From: an uncultured bacterium
GTDB taxonomy: Bacteria > Auribacterota > UBA3054 > JAPLST01
DNA: 64,000 bases
Reading direction: 5' to 3'
NCBI GenBank assembly: GCA_964397565.1
Contig: CAYNJC010000007.1
Span: 5,005-69,004 of the forward strand
Shown here piece after piece: positions 35,460 through 51,292 of this stretch (positions are counted from its first letter, which is position 1; each line of letters starts with the position of its first letter). The notes under the pieces are model-generated. The model was not told the origin of the DNA, did not search any database, and was given only the letters and a program-made list of their open reading frames with translations. Made by a program: the position numbers and the translations under genes.

Positions 35460-36122
35460 ATGAAAAACATGTGGAAACGCGCGGAGTGCATTCTTGAACA
35501 ATGTGGCTGCCTGCTGCTTTTGTTTTTTGTGTGTGGCTGCTCTAAAAAGCCTGACTACAACGCTGCTCTTGTTCAGTTGGCAAGCACAGCATCGTTTCAT
35601 ACGGTCATTAAGGCGGTGAACATAAGTGCAGGCGCCGTCGCCGCGCTGCAGGTACTGCGTGAGCGCTGCCTGACACGCGAGCAATCGAACATAGTCATTT
35701 CGGCGCTTGTGCGCAGCATGGTTCGTTCGGAAATGTACGAAGCAGCACTCGCGCAACACGAAAAGATATCGACCAATTACACCTCGCGGTTAGAAGAGAA
35801 CTTTGCATTACAGGCCGACTATTCCTGCGCACGGGCGCTTTTTGAACTGAGAAGACTGGATGCAGCGATCACGCAATGCCAAGCGATTATCAATGCACCA
35901 ACGCACTATGAACAACAATGGACGTTCAAGGTGAACGCACAGCAGATAGAAGTTAAATGCAGGCTTCTCAATGAAGATTACGATGGTGCAGAGCGTATAT
36001 TGAACGAGATTGAGCAGCTTGCGGGAGAAGAATACATGCCCTTCCGCGTGTGGGCAACGGACGTGCGAGGTGACATGCAAGCGTATCGTGCAGAATTACT
36101 AAAGACCGGCAAAACATACTAA
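35460..36122 (+). CDS. hypothetical lipoprotein (helical/TPR-like), low-GC patch
   Basis: From ATG 35460: MKNMWKRAECILEQCGCLLLLFFVCGCSKKPD, a signal peptide with a possible lipobox VCGC. Region 35.34-36.13 kb is visibly AT-richer than its surroundings. No family recognised. Confidence 0.55.
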   Translation: MKNMWKRAECILEQCGCLLLLFFVCGCSKKPDYNAALVQLASTASFHTVIKAVNISAGAVAALQVLRERCLTREQSNIVISALVRSMVRSEMYEAALAQHEKISTNYTSRLEENFALQADYSCARALFELRRLDAAITQCQAIINAPTHYEQQWTFKVNAQQIEVKCRLLNEDYDGAERILNEIEQLAGEEYMPFRVWATDVRGDMQAYRAELLKTGKTY

Positions 36123-36198
36123 GGATGCGGCGGTGTGAGCGGTGCCATCACATGTCTGGTTGCGGATTTTGCTACACTATGATTATAGGAGACGTTTT

Positions 36199-36873
36199 AT
36201 GCAGAATCAAGGCAAATTGTGCTTGTTGCTGTACGGTGCCGGCGGCCACGCGGCAGTGGTCGAGTCGGCGGTCATTAAAGGCAGTGATTATTTCATTTTT
36301 GAAATTCTGGATGATGGCAAACCGCCTGGGACACGACTGGTGCACGGCAAAGTGCTGGGCGGGCGCAAATATCTTTCCGCATTTCACGCCGACGGGATTC
36401 GCTATGTGCACGTGGCGATCGGTGACAACGCGACGCGCGAACGCGTGGTCGGGGTTCTGGAGCAGACGGGGTTTGTGTACGTGACCGTGCGGCATCCGGC
36501 GGCACTGGTGGAAGAGGGCGCGCTGATTGAGAGCGGCGCGTTTCTGGCGGCGGGCTGCATTGTCGGCGCCCGGACGCACATCGGCCGCGGCTGCATCGTC
36601 AACACGGCCGCGGCGGTTGACCACGATTGCGACGTGGGCGCGTTTGCGCATGTCTGTCCGGGCGCACAACTGGCGGGCGACGTTACCATCGGCGCACGCG
36701 CGTTCATTGGCACTGGCGCGGTGATAATTCCCGGTATAACCATTGGTGACGATGCCATCATCGGTGCCGGCGCGGTGGTCATTCGGCATGTGCCGGCTGG
36801 CCGGACAGTAGTGGGCAATCCGGCGCGGGTGGTCAAACCGCGCGGCGCGCAAGCAGTGGACACGCAGACATAG
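36199..36873 (+). CDS. NeuD/PglB-type sugar O-/N-acyltransferase (left-handed beta-helix, hexapeptide repeats)
   Basis: From ATG 36199 (AGGAG at 36187-36191): the N-terminal Rossmann-like segment LLLYGAGGHAAVV is followed by hexapeptide repeats IGRGCIVNTAAAVDHDCDVGAFAHVCPGAQLAGDVTIGARAFIGTGAVIIPGITIGDDAIIGAGAVV. Confidence 0.75.
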   Translation: MQNQGKLCLLLYGAGGHAAVVESAVIKGSDYFIFEILDDGKPPGTRLVHGKVLGGRKYLSAFHADGIRYVHVAIGDNATRERVVGVLEQTGFVYVTVRHPAALVEEGALIESGAFLAAGCIVGARTHIGRGCIVNTAAAVDHDCDVGAFAHVCPGAQLAGDVTIGARAFIGTGAVIIPGITIGDDAIIGAGAVVIRHVPAGRTVVGNPARVVKPRGAQAVDTQT

Positions 36874-36969
36874 TCACGATCGCTGCAGATGCGCGACACG
36901 GAGGTCGCTCCCACGTTCAGCTGCCGTGCAGAGGCGCCGGGACCAGGAAGGAACGAGTGGCGCTTTTTA

Positions 36970-36978
36970 TGTTATACT
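36970..36978 (+). promoter_or_regulatory. putative extended -10 (TGTTATACT) only 9 nt before the M14 start codon
   Basis: TGTTATACT lies at 36970-36978 and the ATG at 36988. There is no Shine-Dalgarno in the 9-nt gap (AGTATCAAG), so this may be a leaderless or near-leaderless mRNA. Confidence 0.35.
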
Positions 36979-36987
36979 AGTATCAAG

Positions 36988-39225
36988 ATGATTACGACAA
37001 CGACAAAACGACTGGTGTTGAGCGGCTTGGTACTGGTGGTCGGGCTGTTGGCGCACCGCGCGCAGGGTGCGGAGGACAAAACTCTGGTGCGGTTGGAAGC
37101 GCCTACCCCCGCGCTGCTCGCCACGCTGCAGAAAGAGGGCCATGACATTGCTGCCTATCGGCCCGGCAAGTTTTTAGATCTGGTCGTGACCGCCAAAGAA
37201 CGTATAGCGCTGGAAGCACGCGGCCTCACGCCGATACTGCGCAGAACAACGGATGACGTGCGTCGCAATCTTGGCCTGGCGCCGCTGGCCTTGCCGGGCT
37301 ATCGCAGTTACGCGACGGTGCGCGCCGAATTAATCGCGCTGACGGCGGCATATCCGAGCATCACCGCACTGTACGACATTGGCGACAGTCGCGGCAAAGA
37401 GTATGCAACCAACGGCATGGCGGGCTACACTGCGTATCAGCATGATCTGTGGGCGCTGAAAGTGTCGGACAATCCGCAGGTTGAGGAAGACGAGCCGAGC
37501 ATATTCTACTTGGGCGCACACCACGCGCGCGAGCCGATCGGCACGGAAATCGTGATGACCTTACTCAATCTTCTCTTGACGAATTATGGGCATGCTGCGG
37601 CGTGGACGGCCGACGTGACCAACAAACAGATTTGGTTTGTACCGATCGTCAATCCGGACGGGCACAAAATCGTGTACGACGGCAGTGATGTCTGGTGGCG
37701 CAAGAACATTCGCGACAACAATAGCAGCGGCGGATGGAGCAGCGGCGACGGCGTCGATCCAAATCGCAATTACGGCTTTGGGTGGGGCGGCGCCGGCGCG
37801 TCGGCATCGCCGTTTGATGAAACCTATCGCGGGCCGTCGGCGTTTTCCGAGCCGGAGACGCGCGCCGTGAAGGCGTTGGTGGATGCGCACCCGTTTGTGG
37901 CCGGCATTACCTATCACAGTTACAGCGAATTGGTGCTGTTCCCGTATGGGTATGCCACTGGTGTAAGCGCGCCGGATGACGCGGCCTTGCGTGAGCTGGC
38001 GGTGCGCATGGCTCTATCGATTCCCGGACAAAATGGCGGCACCTATACGCCGCAAGTCTCGTGGGAATTATACGCCGCATCCGGCGTGACCGATGACTAT
38101 GCCTATGGCCAGCGTGGCGTATTCTGTTATACCATCGAGGTCGCTGCCAATGAGTTCATCCCGCCGGCGGCGCAGGTGCCGGGCATTTGCCAGAACAACA
38201 TTGCCGCGGCCGTCGCGCTGTTGCGCCGCGTGGACAGCGCGACCTTGACGGGGCGCATCCGTGACGCAGCCAACGCGGCGCCGCTGTGCGCCAGCGTGTA
38301 TGTGCACGGGGTGGACAACACCGGCGCGTATCGCACGCCCTACACGGCTGAACAAACCTTTGGGCGGTATCACCGTTTGCTGACCACGGGCGTATATGCC
38401 GTGACCTATGCCTGCTTTGGTTATCGCAGTGTGCAGACCAATGCGGTCATCCGCGCGACCGGGCAGACCGTCATTGATCTGGACCTGGCCAGCGCGCCGC
38501 GGTGGACGCTGGCAGGGGTGGTGCGCAATGCGGATACGCAGGTGCTGGTGACCAACGCACTCGTGCTGGTGACCAACGCGCCAGTGGCCGCGGTGCGGAC
38601 AGACAGTGGCGGCGCCTTTAGTATGACCAATATACCGCAAGGCCCGTACGCCTTGCGCATCAGTGCGCCGGGCTATGCCGCGATCTGTGCGCCCGTCAGC
38701 GTGGGCGACAGTGACACCAACGTACTCATCGCGCTGCACGATAACATCAATGAGTCCTTTGAGCAAGGCGGATTCAATGGCCTGTGGACCTTTGGCGGCA
38801 ACACGCCATGGACGATCACCAGCGCCCAGCATGCGGACGGCGCCTATGCTGCGCGCTCGGGCGTGATTGGTGACAATCAAAGTTCAAGCATCGCGACGAC
38901 GTTCGACGTGGTGCAACAGAGTGACGTGTCGTTCTACCTGAAAACCTCGACCGAGAGCGGCTATGACTACCTGCGCTTTCTGGTGGACGGCGTCGAGCGC
39001 GCGAAATGGGCAGGCGAGACTCCCTGGCAGCAGGTGCAATATCAGATCAGCACGGGCATGCACACCTTCACCTGGCAGTACAGCAAAGATGCTAACACGG
39101 TGAGTGGCGCGGATGCCGCCTGGCTTGATGTGATTGCATTTCCGGTGGGCGTGCCGGAGCCGTCCGGGCTACTGGCGGCCGCACTGGTGCTGTGGCTGCG
39201 CAGGTATAAATGCACGTTCCAGTAG
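36988..39225 (+). CDS. secreted M14 zinc carboxypeptidase with CarboxypepD_reg-like domains and PEP-CTERM anchor
   Basis: Signal peptide MITTTTKRLVLSGLVLVVGLLAHRAQG. M14 motifs: GAHHAREPIG (HxxE), NPDG, VDPNRNY, ITYHSYSE, YTIEVA. Two regulatory-like beta domains are present (LTGRIRDA..., LAGVVRNA...GPYALRISAPGYA). The C-terminus is GVPEPSGLLAAALVLWLRRYK. Confidence 0.85.
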   Translation: MITTTTKRLVLSGLVLVVGLLAHRAQGAEDKTLVRLEAPTPALLATLQKEGHDIAAYRPGKFLDLVVTAKERIALEARGLTPILRRTTDDVRRNLGLAPLALPGYRSYATVRAELIALTAAYPSITALYDIGDSRGKEYATNGMAGYTAYQHDLWALKVSDNPQVEEDEPSIFYLGAHHAREPIGTEIVMTLLNLLLTNYGHAAAWTADVTNKQIWFVPIVNPDGHKIVYDGSDVWWRKNIRDNNSSGGWSSGDGVDPNRNYGFGWGGAGASASPFDETYRGPSAFSEPETRAVKALVDAHPFVAGITYHSYSELVLFPYGYATGVSAPDDAALRELAVRMALSIPGQNGGTYTPQVSWELYAASGVTDDYAYGQRGVFCYTIEVAANEFIPPAAQVPGICQNNIAAAVALLRRVDSATLTGRIRDAANAAPLCASVYVHGVDNTGAYRTPYTAEQTFGRYHRLLTTGVYAVTYACFGYRSVQTNAVIRATGQTVIDLDLASAPRWTLAGVVRNADTQVLVTNALVLVTNAPVAAVRTDSGGAFSMTNIPQGPYALRISAPGYAAICAPVSVGDSDTNVLIALHDNINESFEQGGFNGLWTFGGNTPWTITSAQHADGAYAARSGVIGDNQSSSIATTFDVVQQSDVSFYLKTSTESGYDYLRFLVDGVERAKWAGETPWQQVQYQISTGMHTFTWQYSKDANTVSGADAAWLDVIAFPVGVPEPSGLLAAALVLWLRRYKCTFQ

Positions 39226-39300
39226 TGCGTCTGAGAGACCGCATTCGATCCCTGTCGGCAGCGCATCTCACGCCGCGCTGCACTATGCCATCGCGCAAAA

Positions 39301-39309
39301 TGCTATACT
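39301..39309 (+). promoter_or_regulatory. putative extended -10 (TGCTATACT) for the 39.3-47.4 kb coupled block
   Basis: TGCTATACT, 37 nt upstream of ATG 39346. Confidence 0.4.
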
Positions 39310-39345
39310 AGGCAGGCCACGTTATCATGTACCGAAGGGTGCAGT

Positions 39346-40191
39346 ATGCATGATCGAACACGCGTTGTCTGCAGTGCCGTGCTGTGGCTGGCAGCTTGTT
39401 GCAGCCACGTCTTTGCGGCCCTCGCGCCGGAGTACACCAACGCCTGCCAGTGGGCGTCAAATCCCAGCAACCTGCCGATCGCGCAGAGCTTGGCGTGGAT
39501 TTGGACCACCAATCACGAGCCAAACACAGCGCTGGTGTGGACCAACACGCGGGTGAAAGTCGTGACCTGGACGCGCTTCTCGAATTCGTTCGCGCCGTAT
39601 GCCGGCACCGGCCAGCTCGTCTCGAACTACTGGGACATGATGTGGGTGACGGTCGCGCCGGAGTTGTACGATTTCTTTGCCGACACCAACCGCTATCCCG
39701 TGCCGATTGACATTGTCGACGCCAAGCTGCGCATCGAACAGTTGTTGGGCGTCTACAATGATTCACTGAATGTGGCATTTGCGGAAGTGTGGGCGCGACC
39801 GGAAGATTTATTCCGCCCGAGTCGCGCTGCCGAAATCACCACGGCCAGCACGGGTGTTGACTGGCCCGCGCCGCTGCAGACGCCGCCGGGCTTTGCCAGC
39901 GCCGACGCGTATGTCGCCTGGTTCACCAATCGGGCCGCGACCGTCTACACCGATCCATATCCGTTCCCGTGGACGCAGTTGGGCTACACCTATGACTGGT
40001 GCCCGGCCAGCACGACCGTGATCGGTATCAGCGAATATGTGCTCAAGAAAAATGCGGAATACTATGTCGCGACGACCTGCGACACGCTCGACTATATTCC
40101 GACCAGTCCGGAGCCGGGCATGCTGGCGGGCATTGCGCTGGTGGTCTGGCGGTGCGCGCGGCGCGGCGGCGCCATGCGGGAGAACGCGTGA
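39346..40191 (+). CDS. hypothetical secreted PEP-CTERM protein
   Basis: Signal peptide MHDRTRVVCSAVLWLAACCSHVFA. The C-terminus is TSPEPGMLAGIALVVWRCARRG (PEP motif, TM, Arg). Its stop overlaps the next start (GTGA, 40188-40191). No family recognised. Confidence 0.75.
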   Translation: MHDRTRVVCSAVLWLAACCSHVFAALAPEYTNACQWASNPSNLPIAQSLAWIWTTNHEPNTALVWTNTRVKVVTWTRFSNSFAPYAGTGQLVSNYWDMMWVTVAPELYDFFADTNRYPVPIDIVDAKLRIEQLLGVYNDSLNVAFAEVWARPEDLFRPSRAAEITTASTGVDWPAPLQTPPGFASADAYVAWFTNRAATVYTDPYPFPWTQLGYTYDWCPASTTVIGISEYVLKKNAEYYVATTCDTLDYIPTSPEPGMLAGIALVVWRCARRGGAMRENA

Positions 40192-41471
40192 GCGGCGTCG
40201 AGCGCACACTCTGGCGGGTCGTGCAGCGGCTGGCGCTGGGCGTTGCGCTGATTAGTGGCTGTGCAGTGCTGTTACTGCTGTCCGACTGGCGCGGGCGCGC
40301 GGCGCGCCGCTCCGCGGTGCCGCGCGTGGCCCTATTTGTTTTTGCCAGCCGGCCGATCATGGAGGAATGCGAACGCGGGTGTCTCGAAGCGCTGGCGGCG
40401 CGTGGCTACCGCGCGGGCGAGACCATGCAGCTGCAACGCTTCAACGCCGAAAGCGATCTGCCGACCGCGAGCACGATCGCCAAGGGGATTGCGGACGCGC
40501 GGGTCACCGCCGTGATCACCTTCAGCACGCCCTGCCTGCAAGCGATGGCGGCCTGCAATCGCGACGGGCTTGTGCCCCATGTGTTCGGTGCCGTCACGGA
40601 TCCGTATGCATCGGGCGTTGGGCTTGATCGTGCGCAGCCGGCGGCCCATCCGTCCTGGCTCACCGGCGTCGGCACCTTTCAGCCGGTGCGCGAGGCGTTC
40701 CGGTTGGCGCGCCAGATGCGGCCCGCGCTACGCTGTGTCGGCGTGGTGTGGTGTACGTCCGAGACGTGCTCGGAAGCGTGTCTGCGCGTGGCGCGCGACG
40801 AATGCCGCGTGCTGGGGATCACGCTGCTGGAAGCGCCAATTACCAGCTCGATTGAAGTGCCCGACGCGGCCAAGGCACTGGTGGCGCGCGGCGCCGAGGC
40901 GCTATGGATTGGCGGTGACAACATTGTCGAGATGGCCGCGCGGGCGATGATTGAGGTTGGCCGTGTCGCCCGGATTCCTGTCTTTGCCAATGCGCCTGGA
41001 CATGCCGCAATAGGCGCGCTGTTCGGGCTCGGCGCCGATTATGTCGAGGTCGGGCGCATTACCGGCAACGTCGCGGCCGATGTGCTGGATGGCGGTGCGT
41101 TGGCGGCGATGCCGGTCCGCGAGGGTGTGCCCCAGCAATTGGCGCTGAACACCGACGTGCCGGCGCTGCTGCGTGACCTGTGGCGGATCCCGTCGAATGT
41201 GCTGGCCGCGGCCGCCATCGTGATCGGCAGCAACCAAGTGGTGCGCGGGCCGGCGCTGGTAGAACAAAAGGGCGCCGTGTCGAATGCGCAGATGCTGGTG
41301 ACGAACGTGCCAGTGGCCGCGGCGCGGATAGACACTGGCGGCGTTGCTGCCGGGCCTCATTCACTCAAGAGATATTGCACGTTGCCGGAATTGTACGGGT
41401 TCTCTGCCGACACCAAGTTTGCCAGTGCCGACGCGTTTGTCGCCTGGTTCACCAAGCGGGACAACGCATGA
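40188..41471 (+). CDS. ABC transporter substrate-binding lipoprotein (PF04392/COG2984-like), single-domain paralog with mosaic C-terminal tail
   Basis: GTG start at 40188. Lipoprotein signal RLALGVALISGC. It is about 88-90% identical at the protein level (by eye) to residues 1-365 of the next gene. The last ~60 aa (MLVTNVPVAAARIDTGG...PELYGFSADTKFASADAFVAWFTKRDNA) are copied fragments of the upstream genes. Confidence 0.8.
   Translation: MSGVERTLWRVVQRLALGVALISGCAVLLLLSDWRGRAARRSAVPRVALFVFASRPIMEECERGCLEALAARGYRAGETMQLQRFNAESDLPTASTIAKGIADARVTAVITFSTPCLQAMAACNRDGLVPHVFGAVTDPYASGVGLDRAQPAAHPSWLTGVGTFQPVREAFRLARQMRPALRCVGVVWCTSETCSEACLRVARDECRVLGITLLEAPITSSIEVPDAAKALVARGAEALWIGGDNIVEMAARAMIEVGRVARIPVFANAPGHAAIGALFGLGADYVEVGRITGNVAADVLDGGALAAMPVREGVPQQLALNTDVPALLRDLWRIPSNVLAAAAIVIGSNQVVRGPALVEQKGAVSNAQMLVTNVPVAAARIDTGGVAAGPHSLKRYCTLPELYGFSADTKFASADAFVAWFTKRDNA
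41289..41467 (+). repeat. collinear relic fragments of the M14 and PEP-CTERM genes (decayed second copy of a tandem duplication)
   Basis: 41289-41345 resembles 38560-38615 (M14 gene). 41382-41417 resembles 39655-39690, and 41415-41460 resembles 39889-39934 (both PEP-CTERM gene). 41456-41485 resembles 40176-40205 (the gene junction). The fragments keep the source order and stay in frame with the SBP ORF. Confidence 0.8.
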
Positions 41472-43498
41472 GCGCAGTCGAGCGCACCATCTGGCGGGTC
41501 GTGCAGCGGTTGGCGCTGGGCGTTGCGTTGATCAGTGGCTGTGCGACCGTGCTGCTGTTGTCCGACTGGCGCGGGCGCGCGGCCCGGCGCACGGCGGTGC
41601 CACGCGTGGCCGTATTCGCCTTTTCCAGCCGGCCAGTTATGGAGGAAAGTGTGCGTGGGTGTCTTGAAGCGCTGGCGGCGCGCGGCTACCGTGCGGGCGA
41701 GACTATGCAGTTACAGCGCTTCAACCCCGAAAGCGATCTGCCGACTGCAAACACGATCGCCAAGGGGATTGTGGACGCGCGTGTTGCCGTCGTGATCACG
41801 TTTGGCACGCCGTGTTTGCAGGTTATGGCGGCCAGTAATCGGAACGGACAAGTGCCGCATGTGTTTGGCGCGGTCACGGATCCCTACGCCGCCGGCGTCG
41901 GGCTTGATCGCGCGCCGCCGGCGGCCCACCCGCCCTGGCTCACCGGCATCGGCACCTTTGAGCCGGTGCGCGAGACGTTCCGGCTGGCGCGCCAGCTGCG
42001 GCCCGCGCTGCAGTGTGTCGGCGTGGTGTGGTGTACATCCGAGACGTGCTCGGAAGCGTGTCTGCGCGTGGCGCGCGACGAATGCCGCGTACTGGGAATC
42101 ACGTTGCTGGAAGCGCCGATTACCAGCTCGATCGAAGTGCCCGACGCGGCCAAGGCACTGGTGGCGCGTGGCGCCGAAGCATTATGGATGGGCGGCGACA
42201 ACATCGTCGAAGTGGCCGCGCCTGCGCTGATTGAGGTCGGCCGCGTCGCGCAGATTCCCGTCTTTGCCAATGTGCCCGGGCATGCCGACATTGGTGCGTT
42301 GTTCGGGCTCGGCGCCGATTTTGTCGAGGCCGGACGGATTGCCGGCAACATCGCAGCTGACGTGCTGGATGGGCGCGCGCCGGCAGATTTGCCGATCCGC
42401 GAGGGCGTGCCCCAGCAATTGGCGCTGAACACCACCGTGCCGGCGCTGCTGCGTGACCTGTGGCAAATTCCATCGAATGTGCTGGCGGCGGCCGCCATCG
42501 TGATCGGCAGCAACCAAGTGGCGCGCGCGCCGGCGTTGGTCGCGCAAGCGGCCGCCGTGACAAACGCGCCGCGCTGCTGGAACATTCATTTTCTGAACTA
42601 TGCCGAATCATCCTTGCTGGACGAGTGCCTGCAAGGATTTCAGGCCGAGCTGGCCGCGCGCGGCATCGTCACCGGCCGGCACTGCCGCATCACGCTGCGC
42701 AATGCGCAATGCCAGATGTTGAACTTGGTGACGATGGTGGATGCCGCCGTGGCGGACAACGCCGATTTGATTCTGGTAACCTCGACACCAACCTTGCAGG
42801 CAACCCTGAAAAGAGCCGGCCGGGTGCCGGTGCTGTTCACGGTGGTGGCCAATCCGTTTCTGGCGGGCGTCGGCACGGATGTGAGCAATCATCTGCCGAC
42901 GGTGACGGGTATTTCGACCATGAGCGATTTCGCCGGCATGGCGGCAGTGGTGCGCGAGTGTCTGCCGCATGCCACCCGGGTCGGCACGCTGTTTTCGAGC
43001 AACGAAGACAACTGCGTGTACAACAAGGACATGCTGGCGGCAGCGCTGCGCAACGTGGGCATCAGTCTGGATGCGGTCGCGGTGTCAACCAGCGCCGAGG
43101 TAGCGGACGCCGCCCTGGCGTTGAGCGGCCGTGGTATTGACGCGATCTGCCAGGTGGTCGGCAACATGCTGGATGCGTCGTTCGCGGGTATCACTCTTGC
43201 GGCCCGGCGCGCGCGCCTGCCGCTGTTCGCGTTTGCGACCAGTCAGGCGCGGGACGGCGGCGCGGCGGTGGCGGTCGCCCGCGATTATGCCGCAGCGGGC
43301 CGTCAACTGGCGCGGCTCACGCAGCGCGTCATGCAGGGGGAGGCGCCCGCACACATGCCGATCGAGTATGTCGCGACAACCGTGGTGAGCGTGCATCCCG
43401 ACAATGCCGCGGCCTGCGGCCTGATGTTGCCGGCGAGTTTGCGCGAGCGCGCGGACAACGTGTTCGGCGTGCCGGAGGAGACGCATGTTGCGCATTGA
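41468..43498 (+). CDS. ABC transporter substrate-binding lipoprotein with two tandem PF04392-like domains
   Basis: ATG 41468 (ATGA overlap). The same lipobox ALISGC is present. Domain 1 (about 1-365) is the paralog of the upstream gene. Domain 2 (WNIHFLNYAESSLLDECLQGF...DLILVTSTPTLQA...VPVLFTVVANPFLAGV...TGIST...LPLFAF...) is a divergent second copy of the fold. 676 aa. Confidence 0.8.
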   Translation: MSAVERTIWRVVQRLALGVALISGCATVLLLSDWRGRAARRTAVPRVAVFAFSSRPVMEESVRGCLEALAARGYRAGETMQLQRFNPESDLPTANTIAKGIVDARVAVVITFGTPCLQVMAASNRNGQVPHVFGAVTDPYAAGVGLDRAPPAAHPPWLTGIGTFEPVRETFRLARQLRPALQCVGVVWCTSETCSEACLRVARDECRVLGITLLEAPITSSIEVPDAAKALVARGAEALWMGGDNIVEVAAPALIEVGRVAQIPVFANVPGHADIGALFGLGADFVEAGRIAGNIAADVLDGRAPADLPIREGVPQQLALNTTVPALLRDLWQIPSNVLAAAAIVIGSNQVARAPALVAQAAAVTNAPRCWNIHFLNYAESSLLDECLQGFQAELAARGIVTGRHCRITLRNAQCQMLNLVTMVDAAVADNADLILVTSTPTLQATLKRAGRVPVLFTVVANPFLAGVGTDVSNHLPTVTGISTMSDFAGMAAVVRECLPHATRVGTLFSSNEDNCVYNKDMLAAALRNVGISLDAVAVSTSAEVADAALALSGRGIDAICQVVGNMLDASFAGITLAARRARLPLFAFATSQARDGGAAVAVARDYAAAGRQLARLTQRVMQGEAPAHMPIEYVATTVVSVHPDNAAACGLMLPASLRERADNVFGVPEETHVAH

Positions 43499-44318
43499 TC
43501 ACATGACTGCGGCCGACGTCGCCTTGGCGCTGGACTGGGCGGCGCGCGAAGGCTGGAATCCAGGATTGCAGGACGCCGTCTGCTTTCACGCGGCGGATCC
43601 GCAGGGCTTTTTCGTAGCGCGCGAGGCGGGACGGGTCGTGGGCTTTATCTCCGCCGTTGCCTACGATGCCGCCTTTGGCTTCATCGGCTTGTATATTGTG
43701 GCGCCGGATTGCCGCGGCAGGCTGGTCGGCATTCGCTTGGCCCAGCGGGCATTGGCGTATTTGGGGCAACGCATCATTGGTGTCGACGGCGTCTTGCAGA
43801 AAACGAAGAATTATGTGGCGCACGGCTTCTGTCTGCAGTGCAAAAACATTCGTCACGCCGGCGTGTTGCCGCACGCGGCCGGCAGCGCGAATGTTGTGGC
43901 GGTGCGAGAGGTGGCGTGGGACGCACTGCTGGCGTATGACCGCCGGCATTTCCCCGCGCCGCGCGCACAGTTTTTGCAGCACTGGCTGGACGCGCCAGGG
44001 CATCATGGCTACGCCTACCTACAGGCGGATGTGGTGCGCGGCTATGGGGTGGTCCGCCCGTGCCGGACGGGCTACAAACTCGGACCACTGTTTGCCGACA
44101 GCATGGCGGTTGCCGATGCGCTGGCAGGCGTGCTGGGTGTGCACACGCAGGGCGCGATGGTGTACTTCGACACACCGGACACGAATCCCGCCGCGGTTGC
44201 GCTGGCGCGCCAGTACGGCATGCAGGAAGTGTTTGCCACGGCGCGCATGTACCGTGGTGGCCTGCCGGATCTGCCAGACAACGAGATCTTTGGCATCACC
44301 AGTTTCGAGTTGGGATGA
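43485..44318 (+). CDS. GNAT family N-acetyltransferase (two-lobed, YitH-like C-terminal extension)
   Basis: GGAGGAG SD, then MLRIDHMTAADVALALDWAAREGWNPG...VGFISAV......IGLYIVAPDCRGRLVGIRL. A second acetyltransferase-like lobe follows (YKLGPLFADS...). It overlaps the SBP gene by 14 nt. Confidence 0.7.
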   Translation: MLRIDHMTAADVALALDWAAREGWNPGLQDAVCFHAADPQGFFVAREAGRVVGFISAVAYDAAFGFIGLYIVAPDCRGRLVGIRLAQRALAYLGQRIIGVDGVLQKTKNYVAHGFCLQCKNIRHAGVLPHAAGSANVVAVREVAWDALLAYDRRHFPAPRAQFLQHWLDAPGHHGYAYLQADVVRGYGVVRPCRTGYKLGPLFADSMAVADALAGVLGVHTQGAMVYFDTPDTNPAAVALARQYGMQEVFATARMYRGGLPDLPDNEIFGITSFELG

Positions 44319-44355
44319 GCATGACGCGGCGCTTTACTTTCCACGGCCAGCACGC

Positions 44356-44388
44356 TATAATGGGCGCGCCGAGTACGGCTTTTTTTTA
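44356..44388 (+). promoter_or_regulatory. possible internal promoter (-10 TATAAT) followed by short hairpin + T8 run in the only real gap of the block
   Basis: GCTATAAT (TATAAT at 44356-44361), then GCCG-AGTA-CGGC followed by TTTTTTTT (44367-44386), with the ATG at 44397. The function (promoter, attenuator or neither) is unresolved. Confidence 0.3.
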
Positions 44389-44396
44389 CAATCCTT

Positions 44397-45647
44397 ATGA
44401 TTGAGCTACAACGCACGACCGAAGAAACCTATGTGACGCTTAACGCCCGCGGGCGTCTCGATGCGGCCAGTGTCAGCACGGTCGAAGCCGAGCTCGATGA
44501 CATTGTGCGCCGCGGCCTCTATGATGTGCGGGTGGGCATGCAGGCGGTCGAGTATATCAGCTCGGCCGGCGTGCGGGTGTTGGTGAAATACTTCAAGTCG
44601 CTCAAGCAACTGGGTGGCGGCCTGCGCATCTGCGCGGCCAGCGACACGGTGTTGGCGGTGTTGCGCATGGGCGGACTGGGTGCCTTGTTCGAGCCGCCCG
44701 CGCGCCACGCGGCGCCGGCGCCGCAAGCGCCGCCCGTCACGCTCACGCGCCACACATTTGGCGACTGTAGTGTCAGCACCTATCCGCAGACGCCGGTGCA
44801 GGCAGTGGCCTGCCGTGTGATCGGGGATGCGCGCGTGCTGACCGCCGCGGCGGCGCCGGAGGTGCTGCCGCGCATTGCGATTACACGTGACCGGCTGGTG
44901 CTCGGCGTGGGCGCCTGCGGACGCGATGCCGCGGATTGCCGCCCGCGCTGCGGCGAACTGTTGGCGGTCAGCGGCGCCGTTGCATATCTGCCCACCGATG
45001 ATGACGGCACGCCCGACTACCTGCTGGCCAGCGCAACAATCCAGCCGGATGCGCATGTGTTGTACGCGCTGCAATGTGATGGCGCGCTGGGCCTGCATGC
45101 GCGCTTCGAGACGGCCGCCGGGCAACGTGGCACACCAGTCTCACAAATTGCGCAGGCGCTGCTCGATCTTTGCGCCGTCGAGCAGATCGCGTTTGTGATG
45201 ATCGCCGAATCGGCCGGCTTGATCGGCGCCGCATTGCGCCGCGCACCGACCGCGGCCGGCGGCGCGCAATTTGCGTTTCCCGATATTCGTGACTGGCTTG
45301 CGTTCACGCCGGAACATGCGCATGAGCGCGCGTTGGCCTTGGTTGTCGGCATCGTCGCGCGGGACGCGCCGGCATGCCTGCAGCCATTCCTGCGCCCGCT
45401 GGCAGCGCCGGCCGCGCTGCTGGGGCACTTGCATGCCGCCGTGTTTGATTACCGCGCCCTGCCCCAAGGTCCGCTGGCGTTGCACGCCACGGTGCATACG
45501 CTGTTCCAGGAGCAAAGCCTGCGCGGCATGCTGCATCTGCTGCATGATCCGCGGGCGATCGCCGGCGCGGGCGAGAGCATGCTGGTGCGCGGTGCGCTGT
45601 GGGCCGGTCCGCTGGGCTCGATCACCCCGGCAGAGCCCACGCGATGA
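44397..45647 (+). CDS. STAS-domain protein with ~310-aa uncharacterised C-terminal domain
   Basis: The N-terminal ~100 aa read TYVTLNARGRLDAASVSTVEAELDDIV....VRVGMQAVEYISSAGVRVLVKYFKSLKQLGGGLRICAASDTVLAVLRMGGL, the SpoIIAA/RsbV-like STAS pattern. The remainder has no motif I recognise. The stop overlaps the permease start (ATGA). Confidence 0.7.
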   Translation: MIELQRTTEETYVTLNARGRLDAASVSTVEAELDDIVRRGLYDVRVGMQAVEYISSAGVRVLVKYFKSLKQLGGGLRICAASDTVLAVLRMGGLGALFEPPARHAAPAPQAPPVTLTRHTFGDCSVSTYPQTPVQAVACRVIGDARVLTAAAAPEVLPRIAITRDRLVLGVGACGRDAADCRPRCGELLAVSGAVAYLPTDDDGTPDYLLASATIQPDAHVLYALQCDGALGLHARFETAAGQRGTPVSQIAQALLDLCAVEQIAFVMIAESAGLIGAALRRAPTAAGGAQFAFPDIRDWLAFTPEHAHERALALVVGIVARDAPACLQPFLRPLAAPAALLGHLHAAVFDYRALPQGPLALHATVHTLFQEQSLRGMLHLLHDPRAIAGAGESMLVRGALWAGPLGSITPAEPTR

Positions 45648-46588
45648 ACCTGCTAATCGGTGCCGTGACCATCGGCCTGTTGCTCTCGCTGCTGGCGCTG
45701 GGCGTCTACATCAGTTTTCGCATTTTCAATTTTGCGGACATCACCGTGGACGGCTCGATTACGCTGGGCGCGGCCGTTGCCGCGATCCTGTTGGTGCAGG
45801 GCGTGCACCCACTCTGGGCGACCTTGCTGGGCGGGCTGGCCGGCTGCCTGGCCGGCATGATCACCGGCGTCCTCCACACGGTGTTCGGCATTCACGGGCT
45901 GCTGTCGGGCATTTTGGTCATGACGGCGCTGTACTCCGTCAATTTGCACGTGATGGGCCGCAGCAATGTGCCGCTGCTGAGTGTCCGCACGATCAGCAGT
46001 GTGGTGGAGCACCAGGCGCTGCGGCTGACCGGCGGCGCGGAGGCGCTGGTGTGGCTCGGCTGGTCCGTGCCGCTGCGCGACGTTGCCATGCTGGGGGTGG
46101 CGTGCGTGGTCAGCGGCGGGGTGGCGTTGCTCCTGTACATGTTCTTGCGCACGAATCTGGGCACGACCATGCGGGCGACCGGCAGCAACGCCCAGATGAT
46201 GCGGGCCTTGGGCGTCAACACCGGCGGGATGATCGTCTTGGGACTGGCGCTGTCGAATGGCTTGGTCGCTTTGTCCGGCGCGCTGCTGGCGCAATACCAG
46301 GGCTTCGCCGATGTGCAGATGGGCATCGGCATGGTTGTCTGGGGCCTGGCTAGTGTCATCATTGGCGAGGCGATTGTGAATACACGCCAGCTTGGCATTA
46401 CCATTGTCGGCGCCGTGATGGGCTCGGTGCTGTTTCGATTGCTGGTTGCCATCGCCTTGCGTTGGGGCCTGAATCCCAACGATCTGAAGCTGATGACCGC
46501 GCTGTTTGTGCTGGGCGCGCTGGTGCTGCCGTCACTGCTGCGCAAACTCGGCGCCCTACGCCTGCGGCGCCCACGGGAGCAGACATGA
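45644..46588 (+). CDS. ABC transporter permease (COG4120-like, BPD_transp_2 type)
   Basis: From ATG 45644: MNLLIGAVTIGLLLSLLALGVYISFRIFNFADITVDGSITLGAAV..., about 9 TM. This is typical of the permease partner of PF04392 binding proteins. Confidence 0.85.
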   Translation: MNLLIGAVTIGLLLSLLALGVYISFRIFNFADITVDGSITLGAAVAAILLVQGVHPLWATLLGGLAGCLAGMITGVLHTVFGIHGLLSGILVMTALYSVNLHVMGRSNVPLLSVRTISSVVEHQALRLTGGAEALVWLGWSVPLRDVAMLGVACVVSGGVALLLYMFLRTNLGTTMRATGSNAQMMRALGVNTGGMIVLGLALSNGLVALSGALLAQYQGFADVQMGIGMVVWGLASVIIGEAIVNTRQLGITIVGAVMGSVLFRLLVAIALRWGLNPNDLKLMTALFVLGALVLPSLLRKLGALRLRRPREQT

Positions 46589-47403
46589 CCGCGCTTAGCA
46601 TGCACCAGGCGCACAAGACCTTTCATGCCGGCACGCCCGACGAGGTGCTGGCGCTGCGCGGCGTCTCGCTGGCCATCGAAGAGGGCAGCTTCGTGGTGGT
46701 GATCGGCACGAATGGCTCGGGCAAGTCCACTTTGCTGAACGCCGTGGCGGGCACGGTCATGCTGGACCGCGGGCGCATCCTGCTGGCGGGGCGCGAGGTG
46801 ACGCGCTGGCCCGAACATCGCCGCGCGCGCATCATCGGCCGGGTCTTTCAGAATCCGTTGAGCGGCACGGCGCCGGGCATGAGCATTGCCGAGAACGTGG
46901 CGCTGGCGGCCCGGCGTGGGCGGACCCACGGCCTAGGCTGGGCCTTGTCGGCGCACACGCGCGCGGAGATCGCCGCGCGCATCGGCGGCCTCGGCATGGG
47001 ACTTGAAGACCGGCTGGGCAATGACATCGCCGGCCTGTCCGGCGGACAACGCCAGGCGCTGACCCTGCTGATGGCCACGTGGGTGCGGCCGCACTTGCTC
47101 TTGCTGGATGAGCACACCGCTGCGCTCGATCCGAAGTCGGCCGCCCTGGTCGTGCGCTTGACCCACACCATTGTGGCCGCGCAACGGCTCACGACCGTGA
47201 TGGTGACCCACTCGATGCATCAGGCGGTCGAACTCGGCGATCGGCTGATCATGCTGCATCGCGGCCAGATTATTGCCGACATCTGTGGCGCGGCGAAGCG
47301 GGCCTTGCGCGCCGCGGATTTGCTCGCGCGCTTCGAGGAACTGCGCCGGATTGAACAGCTTGACTCAAGTGCGGCTGACGTGTTGCGCGCATTCTATGTA
47401 TAA
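46585..47403 (+). CDS. ABC transporter ATP-binding protein (COG1101-like)
   Basis: Walker A GTNGSGKST, signature LSGGQRQAL, Walker B LLLLDEHTAALD, H-loop MVTHS. ATGA overlap with the permease stop. Confidence 0.9.
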   Translation: MTALSMHQAHKTFHAGTPDEVLALRGVSLAIEEGSFVVVIGTNGSGKSTLLNAVAGTVMLDRGRILLAGREVTRWPEHRRARIIGRVFQNPLSGTAPGMSIAENVALAARRGRTHGLGWALSAHTRAEIAARIGGLGMGLEDRLGNDIAGLSGGQRQALTLLMATWVRPHLLLLDEHTAALDPKSAALVVRLTHTIVAAQRLTTVMVTHSMHQAVELGDRLIMLHRGQIIADICGAAKRALRAADLLARFEELRRIEQLDSSAADVLRAFYV

Positions 47404-47413
47404 TAGGGGCGCT

Positions 47414-49591
47414 ATGGACTTTTTTCGCCGCTATCGCCGGATTCTGCGCGTCACCTACGTGGTGGTCGTCCTGATTTCCCTGGCACTCTTCATCATCTAC
47501 ATCAGTGCCGAGTATCGCAGCGCGGAACGCTTGATCACCGAGCGCTTCCGGCAGACTGCCGCACAGGTCGATTATTTCCTGAAAAGCACGACCGATCATG
47601 TGAATGCCATGCGCATGTTCGCCGAACGCTATTGGGTGGAGCATCCCGATGCCACCAACCTGACCGGCTTGGCCGCCCAACTGCGTGATGCGCCGGCACG
47701 CGGCGTTTATGCTCTCGATGACGTGCGGCCGCCCTTCATGACGACCAATATCGCCAACCTGACGGGCTTGGGTTCGATCCACGGGCGCACGCCCGCCTTC
47801 TATCGCCAGATCGCGGTGGCCCTTGCGCTTAACCCGCTGTTCGACATCACCCGCGCCAACGTCCCGAATGCAGCGTGGTCGTATTTTGTCGGCACCGAAT
47901 ATTTTATCAATATCTTCCCTTGGACGCCCAGCGCCAAGTACTGCTATTCGCACACGACCTACAAACAGGAATTTCTTACGCTTGGCCTGCCCACCAACAA
48001 TCCGGGGCGCACCCGCTTCTGGACCGGCATATATGTGGACGAGTGCGGCTTGGGCTTGATGGTCACGTGTGGCGCGCCGGTGTATGAAAACAACCTCTTT
48101 ATCGGTACGGTCTGCGCCGATGCCACCCTCGACGCGCTCAACCGCATCATCAGTGATTTTCCTTTTGCGAATATTACCTTGTGCATTGTCAGTGACCGCG
48201 GCGAGGCCCTGGCGCATCCGCGCCTGATCCGCTCGACCGATACGCAGATCAAACACATCGCCGATATCCTGCCCGGCCGCATGGTGGCGCTGACCAACAC
48301 CTTGCTGCGCGCCGAAGCGGGCGTGCTGCACTATGATTACAGTGTCCTGTATGCCCGTGCCGCGCTTTCGCACGCGCCGTGGCAGTTACTCCTCTACGCC
48401 AATTCCTGGACCATTTTCTGGCCGATCTTCTTGCGGGCGCTGCTGATCTTGGGCGCGTTGCTGGGCGGCCTGACCGCCATGCTCATGATCACCAACCACC
48501 TGACGCGCCGCGAGTTCATTCGCCCGGCTGAGCTGCTGGTCGCACACATCGAGCAGGCCAGCCACGCGCCGGAAACGCCTGCGCCGGCGGTGCCGGCCGC
48601 TTGGACGCCCTGGTTTGCGACGGTCTCAAAAGTGTTCCGCGAGCACAAGCAGCTCCTGGAGGAACTGCGTGAGCACAATGAGCACTTGGACGCCTTGGTC
48701 GCGCAGCGTACGCAGGAGCTAAGCCAGCGCAATCAGGAGGTCGAGGACGCCCTCAAGAAATTGAAGGAAATGCAGCAGCAGATCGTCATGCAGGAAAAAA
48801 TGGCATCGCTGGGCGGGCTCACCGCCGGCGTCGCGCACGAGATCAAGAACCCGCTCAATTTCGTCAATAATTTCGCCGAACTGAGCACCGAGTTGTTCGG
48901 TGAGTTGCGTGAAGCGCTGGCCGCCAATGCGACCACGGGTGATGCGCCGGCGCAGGCCGACATCCGCGCACTGCTCGATGACATCGAACTGAATATTCGC
49001 AAGATCAACGAACATGGCAAACGCGCCGACAGCATTGTGCGCGGCATGCTCTTGCTCTCGCGTGGCAAGACCGGTGAGCGCATGCCGGTTGACATCAACG
49101 CCATGGTGGCCGAATATCTCAATCTGGGGTATCACGGGCTGCGCGCGTTGGATGCGACCTTCAATGTCAAACTTGAGACGGACTTCGACCCGGCCGTCGG
49201 CAGCCTGCTGGTGGTGCCGCAGGATTTGAGCCGCGCGGTGCTGAATGTGGTTAACAATGCCTGCTACGCGGCCTTCAGCGCGCGCAGCAAGCGCGGCGCG
49301 GGCTTTATGCCGACCGTGTCCGTGCGCACCCAGGCGACCGCTGCGCATATCGACATCAGTGTGCGCGACAACGGCATGGGCATCTCGGCCGCCCTGCGCG
49401 AGAAAATCTTTGCGCCGTTCTACACGACCAAGCCGGCCGGCAAAGGCACCGGCTTGGGTCTCTCCATCACCTTCGATATTGTGGTGCATGAGCATCATGG
49501 CGAAATCCTGCTCGATTCGGTCGAGGGTGAGTATGCTCAATTTACCATCCGCCTGCCACGCGCACAAACCCCACCCGGAGCACCTGCATGA
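47414..49591 (+). CDS. sensor histidine kinase with periplasmic Cache-like domain
   Basis: From ATG 47414: TM1 VTYVVVVLISLALFIIYI; a ~300-aa extracytoplasmic region with Cache-like features (WSYFVGTEYFINIFPW, WTGIYVDECGLGLMVTCGAPVY); TM2; coiled coil; HisKA H-box GVAHEIKNPLN; HATPase N/G boxes (NNACYA, DNGMGI, GKGTGLGLS). Confidence 0.85.
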   Translation: MDFFRRYRRILRVTYVVVVLISLALFIIYISAEYRSAERLITERFRQTAAQVDYFLKSTTDHVNAMRMFAERYWVEHPDATNLTGLAAQLRDAPARGVYALDDVRPPFMTTNIANLTGLGSIHGRTPAFYRQIAVALALNPLFDITRANVPNAAWSYFVGTEYFINIFPWTPSAKYCYSHTTYKQEFLTLGLPTNNPGRTRFWTGIYVDECGLGLMVTCGAPVYENNLFIGTVCADATLDALNRIISDFPFANITLCIVSDRGEALAHPRLIRSTDTQIKHIADILPGRMVALTNTLLRAEAGVLHYDYSVLYARAALSHAPWQLLLYANSWTIFWPIFLRALLILGALLGGLTAMLMITNHLTRREFIRPAELLVAHIEQASHAPETPAPAVPAAWTPWFATVSKVFREHKQLLEELREHNEHLDALVAQRTQELSQRNQEVEDALKKLKEMQQQIVMQEKMASLGGLTAGVAHEIKNPLNFVNNFAELSTELFGELREALAANATTGDAPAQADIRALLDDIELNIRKINEHGKRADSIVRGMLLLSRGKTGERMPVDINAMVAEYLNLGYHGLRALDATFNVKLETDFDPAVGSLLVVPQDLSRAVLNVVNNACYAAFSARSKRGAGFMPTVSVRTQATAAHIDISVRDNGMGISAALREKIFAPFYTTKPAGKGTGLGLSITFDIVVHEHHGEILLDSVEGEYAQFTIRLPRAQTPPGAPA

Positions 49592-50757
49592 AGATTCTTG
49601 TGGTTGACGACGAAGCCGATCTTGAACTGCTGATCCGCCAGAAATTCCGCAAACAGATTCAGAGCGGCGCCTATTCCTTCCTCTTTGCCCGCAATGGCGT
49701 CGAGGCCCTCGAACGTCTCAAACACGAACACGACATCGAGGTCGTCCTGACCGATATCAACATGCCGGAAATGGATGGCTTGACCTTGCTGGTAAAAATA
49801 GGCGAGTTGGATCGCGTGCTGCGCGCCGTCGTCGTCTCCGCCTATGGCGACCTGGACAATATCCGCACGGCCATGAACCGCGGCGCCTTTGATTTTCTCA
49901 CCAAACCGATTGACTTCTCCGATCTCGAGATCACCGTCGAAAAAACCATCAAACAAGTCGTCCAGTTGCGCCTGGCCGTGCATGAGCACAGCCGCCTTGA
50001 ATCCATCCAGCACGAGCTCGAACTGGCCCGCACGATGCAGCAGTCGATCCTGCCGCAGACTTTCCCGGCTTTTCCCGACCGCCACGAATTCGACCTCTTT
50101 GCCACGATGATCCCGGCCCGTATGATCGGCGGTGATTTTTATGACTATTTCCTGGTGGATAATGAACATCTCGGCTTGGTCATCGCCGATGTCGCCGACA
50201 AAGGCATCCCCGCCGCCCTGTTTATGATGATGAGCCGCACGTTGCTGCGCGCGCGGGCCTTGAACAATCTGCCGCCGGGGCAGTGCCTGCAGGAAGTCAA
50301 CATGATGCTGTGTGACAATAATGACTCGGCCATGTTTGTCACCCTGTTTTATGGTGTGCTGGATATTGCCAGCGGTACGTTTCGCTATGCCAATGGCGGA
50401 CACAATCCGCCCTGCCTGGTGCGCGCCGCCGGCGACATTGCGCCGCTGCAGACCCAAGCCGGGCCGGTCCTGGGCGTGATTGAGGATGCCACCTATACCG
50501 AGCAAACCGTCACGCTGCAGCCGCACGATGCGATCTTCTTCTACACCGACGGCGTGACGGAAGCGGAAAGCGATGGCCAGGGCTTTTATGGCGAGGCACG
50601 CCTGCATGACGTGCTGCGTCAGTGCCACACGGCTGCGGCCCAGGCGATGGTGTCGGCCGTGGTCAAAGCCGTCCAGCAGTTTGCCGGAGCCGCGGCACAG
50701 TCCGATGACATCACCGCGCTGGCCATGCGCTACAAGCCGGAGGCCGGCGCGGCGTGA
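49588..50757 (+). CDS. response regulator receiver fused to PP2C/SpoIIE-type Ser phosphatase
   Basis: REC: MKILVVDDE...LTDINMPEMDG...KP. PP2C: ARTMQQSILPQ, GGDFYDYF, GLVIADVADKGIPAALFM, FVTLFYGVLD, ANGGHNPP, FFYTDGVTEA, DDITALAM. ATGA overlap with the kinase stop. Confidence 0.88.
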   Translation: MKILVVDDEADLELLIRQKFRKQIQSGAYSFLFARNGVEALERLKHEHDIEVVLTDINMPEMDGLTLLVKIGELDRVLRAVVVSAYGDLDNIRTAMNRGAFDFLTKPIDFSDLEITVEKTIKQVVQLRLAVHEHSRLESIQHELELARTMQQSILPQTFPAFPDRHEFDLFATMIPARMIGGDFYDYFLVDNEHLGLVIADVADKGIPAALFMMMSRTLLRARALNNLPPGQCLQEVNMMLCDNNDSAMFVTLFYGVLDIASGTFRYANGGHNPPCLVRAAGDIAPLQTQAGPVLGVIEDATYTEQTVTLQPHDAIFFYTDGVTEAESDGQGFYGEARLHDVLRQCHTAAAQAMVSAVVKAVQQFAGAAAQSDDITALAMRYKPEAGAA

Positions 50758-50881
50758 AGATGTGGGAGCCACGACCAACGTGGAGAAGGTTTCAGTGACA
50801 AAGACCGACGCACCATGCCGCTGGCCAGCGGTGCGCAAAGTTAGTATCATATAGCAAGTACATTAACCGCAGCACAGGAGC

Positions 50882-51292
50882 ATGACTATGGCACTCAGTG
50901 TGGATATCAAGATACGGCCGGAGGGCGGGCACATTGTCGCGCCAAAAGGCCGGTTGGACACCGTCACGCATGAAGAATTCGAGCAGAAGATCACGCCGTT
51001 GCTCAATGGCGGCACGACCATGGTGGTGCTGGACATGGCCGGGGTTGAGTACATCAGCAGCGCCGGGCTGCGCGTCGTGTTCAAGTTGTGGAAGAACATC
51101 GCGGGCAACAAGGGCGTGTTCACCATGACCAATCTGCAGCCGCAGATCCAGGCCGTGTTTGACATCGTCAAGGCGCTGCCGAAGGAATCCGTCTTCGCCA
51201 GTATGGACGAGGCCGATCGCTACCTGACGGTCATGCAGCAGAAGGCGCTCGAGAAACTGCGCGGCACGGCCAGCGGCGCCACCACGGCCTGA
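50882..51292 (+). CDS. STAS-domain anti-sigma-factor antagonist (RsbV/SpoIIAA-like)
   Basis: The sequence HIVAPKGRLDTVTHEEFEQKI..L...TTMVVLDMAGVEYISSAGLRVVFKLWK...G.FTMTNLQPQIQAVFDIV has a conserved phosphorylatable Ser context ISSAGL. Confidence 0.85.
   Translation: MTMALSVDIKIRPEGGHIVAPKGRLDTVTHEEFEQKITPLLNGGTTMVVLDMAGVEYISSAGLRVVFKLWKNIAGNKGVFTMTNLQPQIQAVFDIVKALPKESVFASMDEADRYLTVMQQKALEKLRGTASGATTA

Follow-up and report, generated by a model that had tools for sequence, protein, structure and literature searches.

In the ATP-binding cassette (ABC) transporter MlaFEDB one subunit, MlaB, is a STAS protein that attaches to the helical subdomain of MlaF, the ATPase, with Thr52, the equivalent of the phosphosite, at the centre of the interface (PMC7367683). 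The phosphomimetic variant T52E binds MlaF poorly, and whether phosphorylation regulates MlaB was left open by the authors of that work (PMC7367683). Here we describe STAS-X, our name for a 416-amino-acid protein encoded at 44397-45647 on the + strand of a 64,000-nucleotide stretch of DNA from an uncultured bacterium of the Auribacterota (contig CAYNJC010000007.1, positions 5,005 to 69,004, of assembly GCA_964397565.1). The whole stretch is referred to as the window. STAS-X is encoded between genes for the substrate-binding proteins (SBPs) and genes for the permease and ATPase of an ABC importer. The original prediction for this locus, made from the sequence alone, had held that STAS domains are not members of ABC operons, which the case of MlaB shows to be wrong (PMC7367683).

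STAS-X and MlaB are alike in that both are STAS proteins encoded within an ABC transporter operon, and MlaB chains are matched by the STAS domain of STAS-X. They differ in most other respects. MlaB is a bare STAS domain of ~100 amino acids in an MCE lipid transporter (MlaE, MlaD) that has no SBP, whereas STAS-X carries an extra 300-amino-acid domain and accompanies an SBP-dependent PF02653 importer, often with kinase and phosphatase genes adjacent. The STAS-X system is not Mla: it has a PF02653 permease and PF04392 SBPs, and no MCE protein was found at the locus.

A second comparison is offered by partner switching, in which SpoIIAA and RsbV operate together with the kinases SpoIIAB and RsbW and the PP2C phosphatases SpoIIE, RsbU and RsbY. 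STAS-X shares with SpoIIAA and RsbV the STAS fold, membership of the TIGR00377 family and the Ser of the phosphosite, and it can have genes for a HATPase_c_2 kinase and a PP2C phosphatase adjacent to it. The classical antagonists are, however, single-domain proteins of 100-130 amino acids that act on an anti-sigma factor, whereas STAS-X has a large C-terminal domain, lies inside a transporter operon and has no recurrent sigma factor gene nearby among the families listed.

The transporter itself resembles TrpXYZ (TCDB 3.A.1.34), which has reportedly been characterised in Streptococcus suis as a system for the uptake of tryptophan: both consist of a PF04392 SBP, a PF02653 permease and one ATPase. 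We know of no STAS subunit in the TrpXYZ systems that have been described. TrpX is the best NCBIfam match of both SBPs in the window, at 137.6 and 264.4 bits, far below the equivalog cut-off of 390; in contrast to TrpX, the SBPs here thus score below the level that serves as the criterion of tryptophan specificity, and they are membrane-anchored and often multi-domain. An Rfam scan of 36000-53000 for a T-box or riboswitch like that on Streptococcus trpX returned no match of any kind.

There are also analogies of function. PhoU, of the PstSCAB/PhoR system, is a cytoplasmic ligand- or metal-binding module at an importer ATPase that regulates transport or reports it to a signalling system. MetNI and ModBC are ABC importers with regulatory trans-inhibition domains (PMC7367683). 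The likeness between STAS-X and either PhoU or MetN and ModC is one of function only, the folds being unrelated, and those modules differ from STAS-X in that they signal directly to a histidine kinase or are fused to the ATPase.

Results

STAS-X is encoded in a conserved transporter cassette

The genomic context of STAS-X was determined in 84 non-redundant loci (5 from exact-protein look-ups and 79 from a genome scan), in which six-frame open reading frames (ORFs) were searched with the proteins of the window; the denominators given are loci with enough flank. The permease is the next gene downstream of STAS-X, on the same strand, in 70 of 72 loci, and the ATPase follows the permease in 69 of 72. 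Directly upstream of STAS-X lies a PF04392 SBP in 69 of 77 loci, with three more having an SBP downstream. The same order of SBP, STAS-X, permease and ATPase is found in gene calls with Pfam (contigs of Acidobacteriota, Kiritimatiellae and others). Permease and ATPase are complete and highly conserved, and their Walker and signature motifs are invariant. The original prediction depended on the linkage of STAS-X to ABC genes holding in other genomes, and these counts uphold it; a functional role of STAS-X within the transporter system is in our view very probable. Start/stop overlaps such as those in the window are commonplace in the operons of GC-rich genomes, whereas the retention of the gene order elsewhere goes beyond chance.

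The census bears equally on the possibility that STAS-X neighbours the transporter merely by chance and has its function solely with the downstream partner-switching genes. Those genes lie 3.5 kb away in the window, and STAS-X is preceded there by a 78-nt gap that contains a promoter-like site, both of which speak for this possibility. Yet the position between SBP and permease recurs in ~70 loci of many phyla, most of them devoid of partner-switching genes; the census contradicts an incidental association, which we regard as highly improbable.

The cassette ATPases are uniform across phyla (65-74% identity), as against ~40% for STAS-X. Among the matches listed, 112 of 120 ATPase homologs are 270 amino acids long, and some bear the JGI name 'putative tryptophan/tyrosine transport system ATP-binding protein'. 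They share a C-terminal tail of ~35 residues (…DLLxRFEEVRRxEQLDxxAAEMLRRxYV) that could, by analogy, act like the C-terminal 'handshake' of MlaF. The SBPs are more varied: among 82 SBP ORFs the number of PF04392 domains is one in 47, two in 24, three in 8 and four in 3. Two Kiritimatiellae-type loci encode giant SBPs of 1,302-1,341 amino acids with several PF04392 domains (L002, 5895-9920; L010, 6096-10004), in both cases with the gene for a DUF308 membrane protein ahead of them.

STAS-X is a widespread family of fixed architecture

A search of 5.8 billion proteins with STAS-X returned 348 matches. Each of the best 120 of these 348 has 394-440 amino acids, aligns to 94-100% of the query with 34-45% identity and has STAS as its only Pfam domain; in the source databases homologs are named only 'STAS domain-containing protein' or 'anti-anti-sigma factor'. 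A profile of the C-terminal domain (305 residues), compared with 1.84 billion cluster representatives, detected 1,019 proteins, 486 of them at E<=1e-30, which puts the size of the family at ~1,000 clusters at 50% identity. Nearly all of the 1,019 representatives are ~400-445 amino acids in length with the domain at ~112-410, and the shorter ones look like contig-end fragments. Given that nearly all profile matches have this fixed length and domain position, the C-terminal domain seems to exist only behind a STAS domain.

At least 298 species genomes contain a relative. Among the 80 best loci listed Acidobacteriota predominate; other taxa with STAS-X include Binatia, Verrucomicrobiota, Planctomycetota, Kiritimatiellae, Thermodesulfobacteriota, Nitrospiraceae and Acidimicrobiia. 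All but two (L027 and L034) of the 80 best records are titled metagenome-assembled genomes (MAGs). STAS-X thus represents a genuine family, unnamed but widespread, whose two-domain architecture, STAS followed by a new domain, is fixed. Literature searches on STAS proteins in ABC transporters and partner switching, on STAS and acetolactate decarboxylase, on PF04392 transporters and on STAS architectures turned up no account of it. An AlphaFold2 model of STAS-X built with 60 homologs has a pLDDT of 91.4 and a pTM of 0.80, with only residues 102-107 disordered.

The N-terminal domain is of the SpoIIAA/RsbV type

The STAS domain occupies residues 1-100 (44397-44696) and is connected by a linker (residues ~102-111) to the C-terminal domain (residues ~112-410; 44730-45626). 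Pfam places STAS at residues 9-98 (PF01740, 52.1 bits against a cut-off of 22.6, E 6e-14) and recognises no model beyond; against TIGR00377 the protein scores 60.6 bits, above the cut-off of 53.45. In Foldseek comparisons the modelled domain matches the RsbV chains of 6m36 with TM-scores of 0.86-0.90 and a root-mean-square deviation of 1.7-2.0 A, and it also matches chains of SpoIIAA and MlaB. The best matches of the STAS profile in the PDB are SpoIIAA (E 2e-16) and RsbV, with MlaB also matched (7ch8). Model cut-offs, fold and phosphosite residue all place STAS-X in the STAS/anti-sigma-antagonist superfamily.

In the profile alignment with PDB sequences the counterpart of Ser56 (motif ISSAG) is the first Ser of DSSG in SpoIIAA, which from our own counting of the sequence we take to be the phosphorylated Ser58. 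This serine is kept in 132 of 132 representatives that are no more than 50% identical to each other. The N-terminal domain of STAS-X is therefore a STAS domain of the SpoIIAA/RsbV type with an invariant Ser at the position of phosphorylation. The motif VEYISSAG is, as had been pointed out, common to STAS-X and to the small STAS protein encoded at 50882. We rejected it as a sign of any special relation between the two: 38% identity over 52 amino acids is ordinary STAS similarity.

The C-terminal domain is new and has an enzyme-like conserved site

The ~310 amino acids after the STAS domain had been called unplaceable from sequence, and so they proved: no Pfam match was obtained in any of 60 homologs even at E<=10, and searches for an NCBIfam model or a sequence relative in the PDB were empty. 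Structure prediction, on the other hand, gave a fold like that of alpha-acetolactate decarboxylase (ALDC, PF03306) and PTD012. With Foldseek the domain matches human PTD012/C11orf54 (1xcr, titled 'novel Zinc-containing fold') at E 1e-7 and TM 0.49, and ALDCs at E ~1e-6, with TM 0.59-0.64 on the target and 288-302 aligned columns.

H346 is conserved in 100% of sequences, H344, H380 and D384 in 99%, E271 in 96% and E187 in 95%; G-x-G-A-x-G (170-175), D207, R386 and W402 are also near-invariant. An H-x-H on a strand together with a further conserved His recalls ALDC and PTD012, and the G-x-G-x-F ... G-E of STAS-X resembles the G-I-G-T-F ... D-G-E-L of ALDC, which holds the catalytic Glu. The near-invariant set of H-x-H, H, D, E, E and R looks enzyme-like, and we predict a metal or ligand site; since the third His lies at +34 after the H-x-H, and not at +11, the His3 metal site is only a candidate. 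The sequences themselves are a different matter. Neither ALDC nor PTD012 shows significant sequence or profile similarity to the domain, and neither shares the STAS fusion or the link to an ABC operon. We rejected homology to ALDC, given an hhalign probability of 0.4% and no PF03306 match, and limit the claim to similarity of fold; likewise there is no match by sequence to PTD012/DUF1907 (PF08925), only similarity of fold. The sole aligned stretch with ALDC places the invariant G186-E187 on the D-G-E-L motif. In the original prediction, membership of the C-terminal domain in a known enzyme family was to count against a role in transport. The outcome is divided: the fold does resemble ALDC and PTD012, but membership by sequence fails. 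The domain is new and, judging from its conserved residues, probably metal-binding.

The fold opens the possibility that the C-terminal domain is an ALDC/PTD012-fold zinc enzyme that converts the imported solute, with the STAS domain serving only for phospho-regulation and with no contact to the transporter. Its match to enzymes, the catalytic look of the near-invariant H, H, H, D, E, E and R, and the frequency with which catabolic enzymes share an operon with their transporter all speak for this. A downstream enzyme would not, however, be expected to hold a fixed place between SBP and permease, often coupled by an ATGA overlap, which is the pattern of a subunit; moreover, the domain is never found without STAS, no further catabolic gene recurs in the neighbourhood, and membership of ALDC or DUF1907 is absent at the level of sequence. 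We consider a purely metabolic role quite unlikely.

Partner-switching genes accompany a part of the cassettes

Partner-switching genes were sought within 10 kb of STAS-X by hidden Markov models built from first matches, and were counted in the 52 fully flanked loci. An RsbW-like kinase, a PP2C phosphatase or a small STAS protein is encoded in 22 of them. The kinase is present in 18 of the 52, at 160-205 bits, scores from which we take the kinases to be one orthologous group; its gene nearly always borders the cassette, immediately ahead of the SBP or immediately behind the ATPase, and usually on the same strand. PP2C genes related to the response regulator-PP2C fusion of the window occur at 13 of 52 other loci. 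Complete sets of PP2C, kinase and small STAS are found in Planctomycetota (L028), Blastocatellia (L037, which additionally has a histidine kinase), Nitrospiraceae (L034), Verrucomicrobiota (L054) and others. At seven of the loci with a kinase (L003, L008, L036, L053, L071, L049 and L050) there is no second STAS within 10 kb. Two of these, L049 (13119-14834) and L050 (13118-14833), encode a 572-amino-acid GAF-PP2C(SpoIIE)-HATPase_c_2 protein directly after the ATPase; with this phosphatase-kinase fusion present and no small STAS within 10 kb, STAS-X is the only visible substrate.

In a Pfam census of the 135 other ORFs around 26 kinase-positive loci, four ORFs is the most that any family reached, and the 25 commonest families listed (each in at least 2 of the 135 ORFs) include none of the sigma-70 type. 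Peripla_BP_5/6 (UrtA/LivJ-type) occurs in 4 of the 135 and is the sole additional family in more than three. It had been proposed that the large STAS protein is an accessory or regulatory subunit linking the transporter to partner switching. By comparative context this is the best reading, with switch genes at 22 of 52 loci, although the adjacency is absent in the closest relatives.

A signalling function alone might also account for these observations. On such an account the ABC cassette is a sensor, and STAS-X reports the transport cycle or the occupancy of the ligand site to an RsbW-type kinase, in the manner of PhoU between PstB and PhoR and with no effect on transport itself; the kinase may be encoded elsewhere. 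Multi-domain SBPs are indeed common (2-4 PF04392 domains in 35 of 82 SBP ORFs, up to 1,341 amino acids), the STAS domain is of the antagonist type with its invariant Ser, a kinase is adjacent in 18 of 52 loci, and in the window a histidine kinase and a response regulator-PP2C follow the ATPase by 10 nt. Against this account, permease and ATPase are complete and highly conserved, with invariant Walker and signature motifs, as expected of a working transporter; 30 of 52 cassettes have no signalling gene nearby, and the enzyme-like polar site of the C-terminal domain is left unexplained. We judge it unlikely that signalling is the whole function.

The gene block in the window

Seven co-oriented genes on the + strand span 39346-47403 of the window, as seen from the ORF listing and from direct reading of the sequence. 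The first encodes a secreted protein of 281 amino acids with a PEP-CTERM-like tail (39346-40191), which has no model match and lies outside the conserved system. There follow a single-domain PF04392 SBP of 427 amino acids (40188-41471), a double-PF04392 SBP of 676 amino acids with an N-terminal hydrophobic anchor (41468-43498), a two-lobed GNAT acetyltransferase of 277 amino acids (43485-44318, assigned by Pfam), STAS-X, the PF02653 permease of 314 amino acids (45644-46588), whose start overlaps the stop of STAS-X (ATGA), and the ATPase of 272 amino acids (46585-47403). Pfam and NCBIfam, which recognise both SBPs and the ATPase, bear out the identities first given to the SBPs, GNAT, STAS protein, permease and ATPase.

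The junctions reported earlier are exact: GTGA at 40188-40191, ATGA at 41468-41471, a 14-nt overlap at 43485-43498, and ATGA at 45644-45647 and at 46585-46588. The statement that overlaps join all seven genes holds for these five junctions and fails for GNAT and STAS-X, which are separated by 78 nt (44319-44396). All five overlapping junctions have GGAG-like sequences. The gap contains a run of eight Ts and, at 44333-44361 on the + strand, a sigma70-like promoter match, TTTACT-17-TATAAT (a match to consensus only); the ATG of STAS-X has no Shine-Dalgarno sequence before it. A further promoter-like match, CTGACG-18-TATAAT at 47375-47404, ends at the ATPase stop.

Ten nucleotides past that stop begins the gene for a membrane sensor histidine kinase of 725 amino acids (47414-49591, + strand; HisKA, HATPase_c and a weak dCache). 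It is followed, on the same strand and with Pfam assignments throughout, by genes for a response regulator-PP2C (SpoIIE) phosphatase fusion of 389 amino acids (49588-50757), a stand-alone STAS protein of 136 amino acids resembling anti-sigma antagonists (50882-51292) and an RsbW/SpoIIAB-like serine kinase (HATPase_c_2) of 143 amino acids (51344-51775). The succession of histidine kinase and response regulator-PP2C resembles the arrangement of RsbK and RsbY in Bacillus cereus.

Genes upstream of STAS-X

The seven genes were rejected as one conserved unit, as synteny with an 88%-identical relative (L012) breaks at 44325: homology between L012 and the window begins there, downstream of GNAT and inside the gap before STAS-X. 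GNAT itself, whose lobes correspond to Acetyltransf_1 (residues 20-115) and Acetyltransf_18 (residues 149-270) in Pfam, found no PDB relative in a sequence search. It occurs beside the cassette in none of the 52 other loci, which led us to reject it as a member of the system; the suggestion that it may modify the cargo has no comparative support. By its sequence context GNAT is a lineage-specific insertion between SBP and STAS-X, outside the conserved cassette. The 281-amino-acid protein is likewise found beside the cassette in 0 of 52 loci.

The double SBP has as PDB relatives 3lkv, 6hni and 3lft. The first SBP corresponds to domain one of the second in truncated, tandemly duplicated form: the two are 85% identical in amino acid sequence over residues 1-367, and the duplication is visible as a 300-nt direct repeat at a spacing of 1280 nt. 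The first SBP is chimeric: its last ~60 residues are shrunken copies of pieces of the M14 peptidase gene and of the PEP-CTERM-like gene with their order kept, 41277-41460 being among the segments involved. This tail is a patchwork of short repeats copied from 38548-38614, 39657-39689 and 39892-39934. The pattern of repeats suggests that ~2.7 kb were duplicated in tandem and that parts were later deleted. The label 'lipoprotein' for this SBP is doubtful on direct reading: the Cys of LISGC lies inside a hydrophobic stretch of ~20 residues, and a signal anchor is equally likely.

As for the label 'PEP-CTERM', the 281-amino-acid protein does end in a fitting motif, SPEPG-hydrophobic-RCARR, but matches no NCBIfam or Pfam model even at E<=10. 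The gene before it (36889-39225) encodes an M14 carboxypeptidase of 778 amino acids with CarboxypepD_reg domains and a PEP-CTERM-like tail of its own, VPEPSG-hydrophobic-RRYK. The tails of both proteins are without an NCBIfam model match.

Discussion

STAS-X combines known kinds of component, the STAS accessory subunit and partner switching, with an undescribed domain. How these might work together can be put as a composite mechanism, drawn by analogy, to which we give about even chances: STAS-X would be an MlaB-like, probably phospho-switchable regulatory fourth subunit of a TrpXYZ-type importer. It would be a cytoplasmic partner of the PF04392 SBP, the PF02653 permease and the 270-amino-acid ATPase, and the contact of its STAS domain with the ATPase would be like that of MlaB with MlaF, so that Ser56 would lie in the interface or close to it. 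A metal may be bound by the C-terminal domain together with a small molecule, which could be the solute taken up or something produced or derived from it; the domain would then be the trans-acting regulatory counterpart of the C-terminal domains of MetN and ModC. Where a kinase and a phosphatase are present, phosphorylation of Ser56 could shift STAS-X between transporter and kinase. Control or information would then pass both ways between transport and the partner-switching cascade, with no sigma factor in the locus. In the window a histidine kinase stands above the PP2C and could bring in a signal from outside, and the small STAS protein may compete with STAS-X for the same kinase.

More tentative is the full form of this switch. 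It is possible, though we would not call it likely, that Ser56 is switched back and forth between its two states by an RsbW-type kinase and a PP2C phosphatase, that phosphorylation of a serine, and not a sigma factor, thereby gates uptake or else the state of transport gates the kinase, and that the new domain senses the solute.

Several findings weigh against a regulatory fourth subunit of this kind. The STAS domain is far closer to anti-sigma antagonists than to MlaB (E 1e-16 versus 2e-4 for MlaB of P. aeruginosa). No partner-switching gene lies within 10 kb of 30 of the 52 cassettes. In the two nearest relatives the flanks differ from those of the window: L012 has unrelated genes upstream, and in L092 the gene after that of the ATPase (84% identical) encodes a sulfatase. 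Being absent in these closest relatives, the adjacency of the SBP/GNAT block and that of the kinase and phosphatase are facultative. The third conserved His (H380) is at +34 after the H-x-H, compared with +11 in ALDC, and it was against three ALDC sequences rebuilt from PDB matches that hhalign gave its probability of 0.4%. Finally, the 84 loci are those nearest to the query, dominated by MAGs of Acidobacteriota and phylogenetically clustered, and the counts derived from them are not phylogenetically independent. Beyond sequence and context, all that is said here of STAS-X is prediction.

The post-translational regulation of ABC transporters is poorly understood, and STAS-X provides a natural test case: an invariant phosphosite Ser in an SBP-dependent importer, found in hundreds of environmental genomes, with a kinase and a phosphatase encoded next door in about a third of the sampled loci. 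It defines a domain of ~300 amino acids that has an enzyme-like conserved site and is covered by neither Pfam nor NCBIfam. With STAS-X the PF04392 transporters, most of which are uncharacterised, gain a fourth component. The family also suggests an output of partner switching other than a sigma factor. Should the full form of the switch be true, STAS-X would provide the first case in nature of an ABC transporter regulated through phosphorylation of a STAS subunit, for MlaB no more than a hypothesis.

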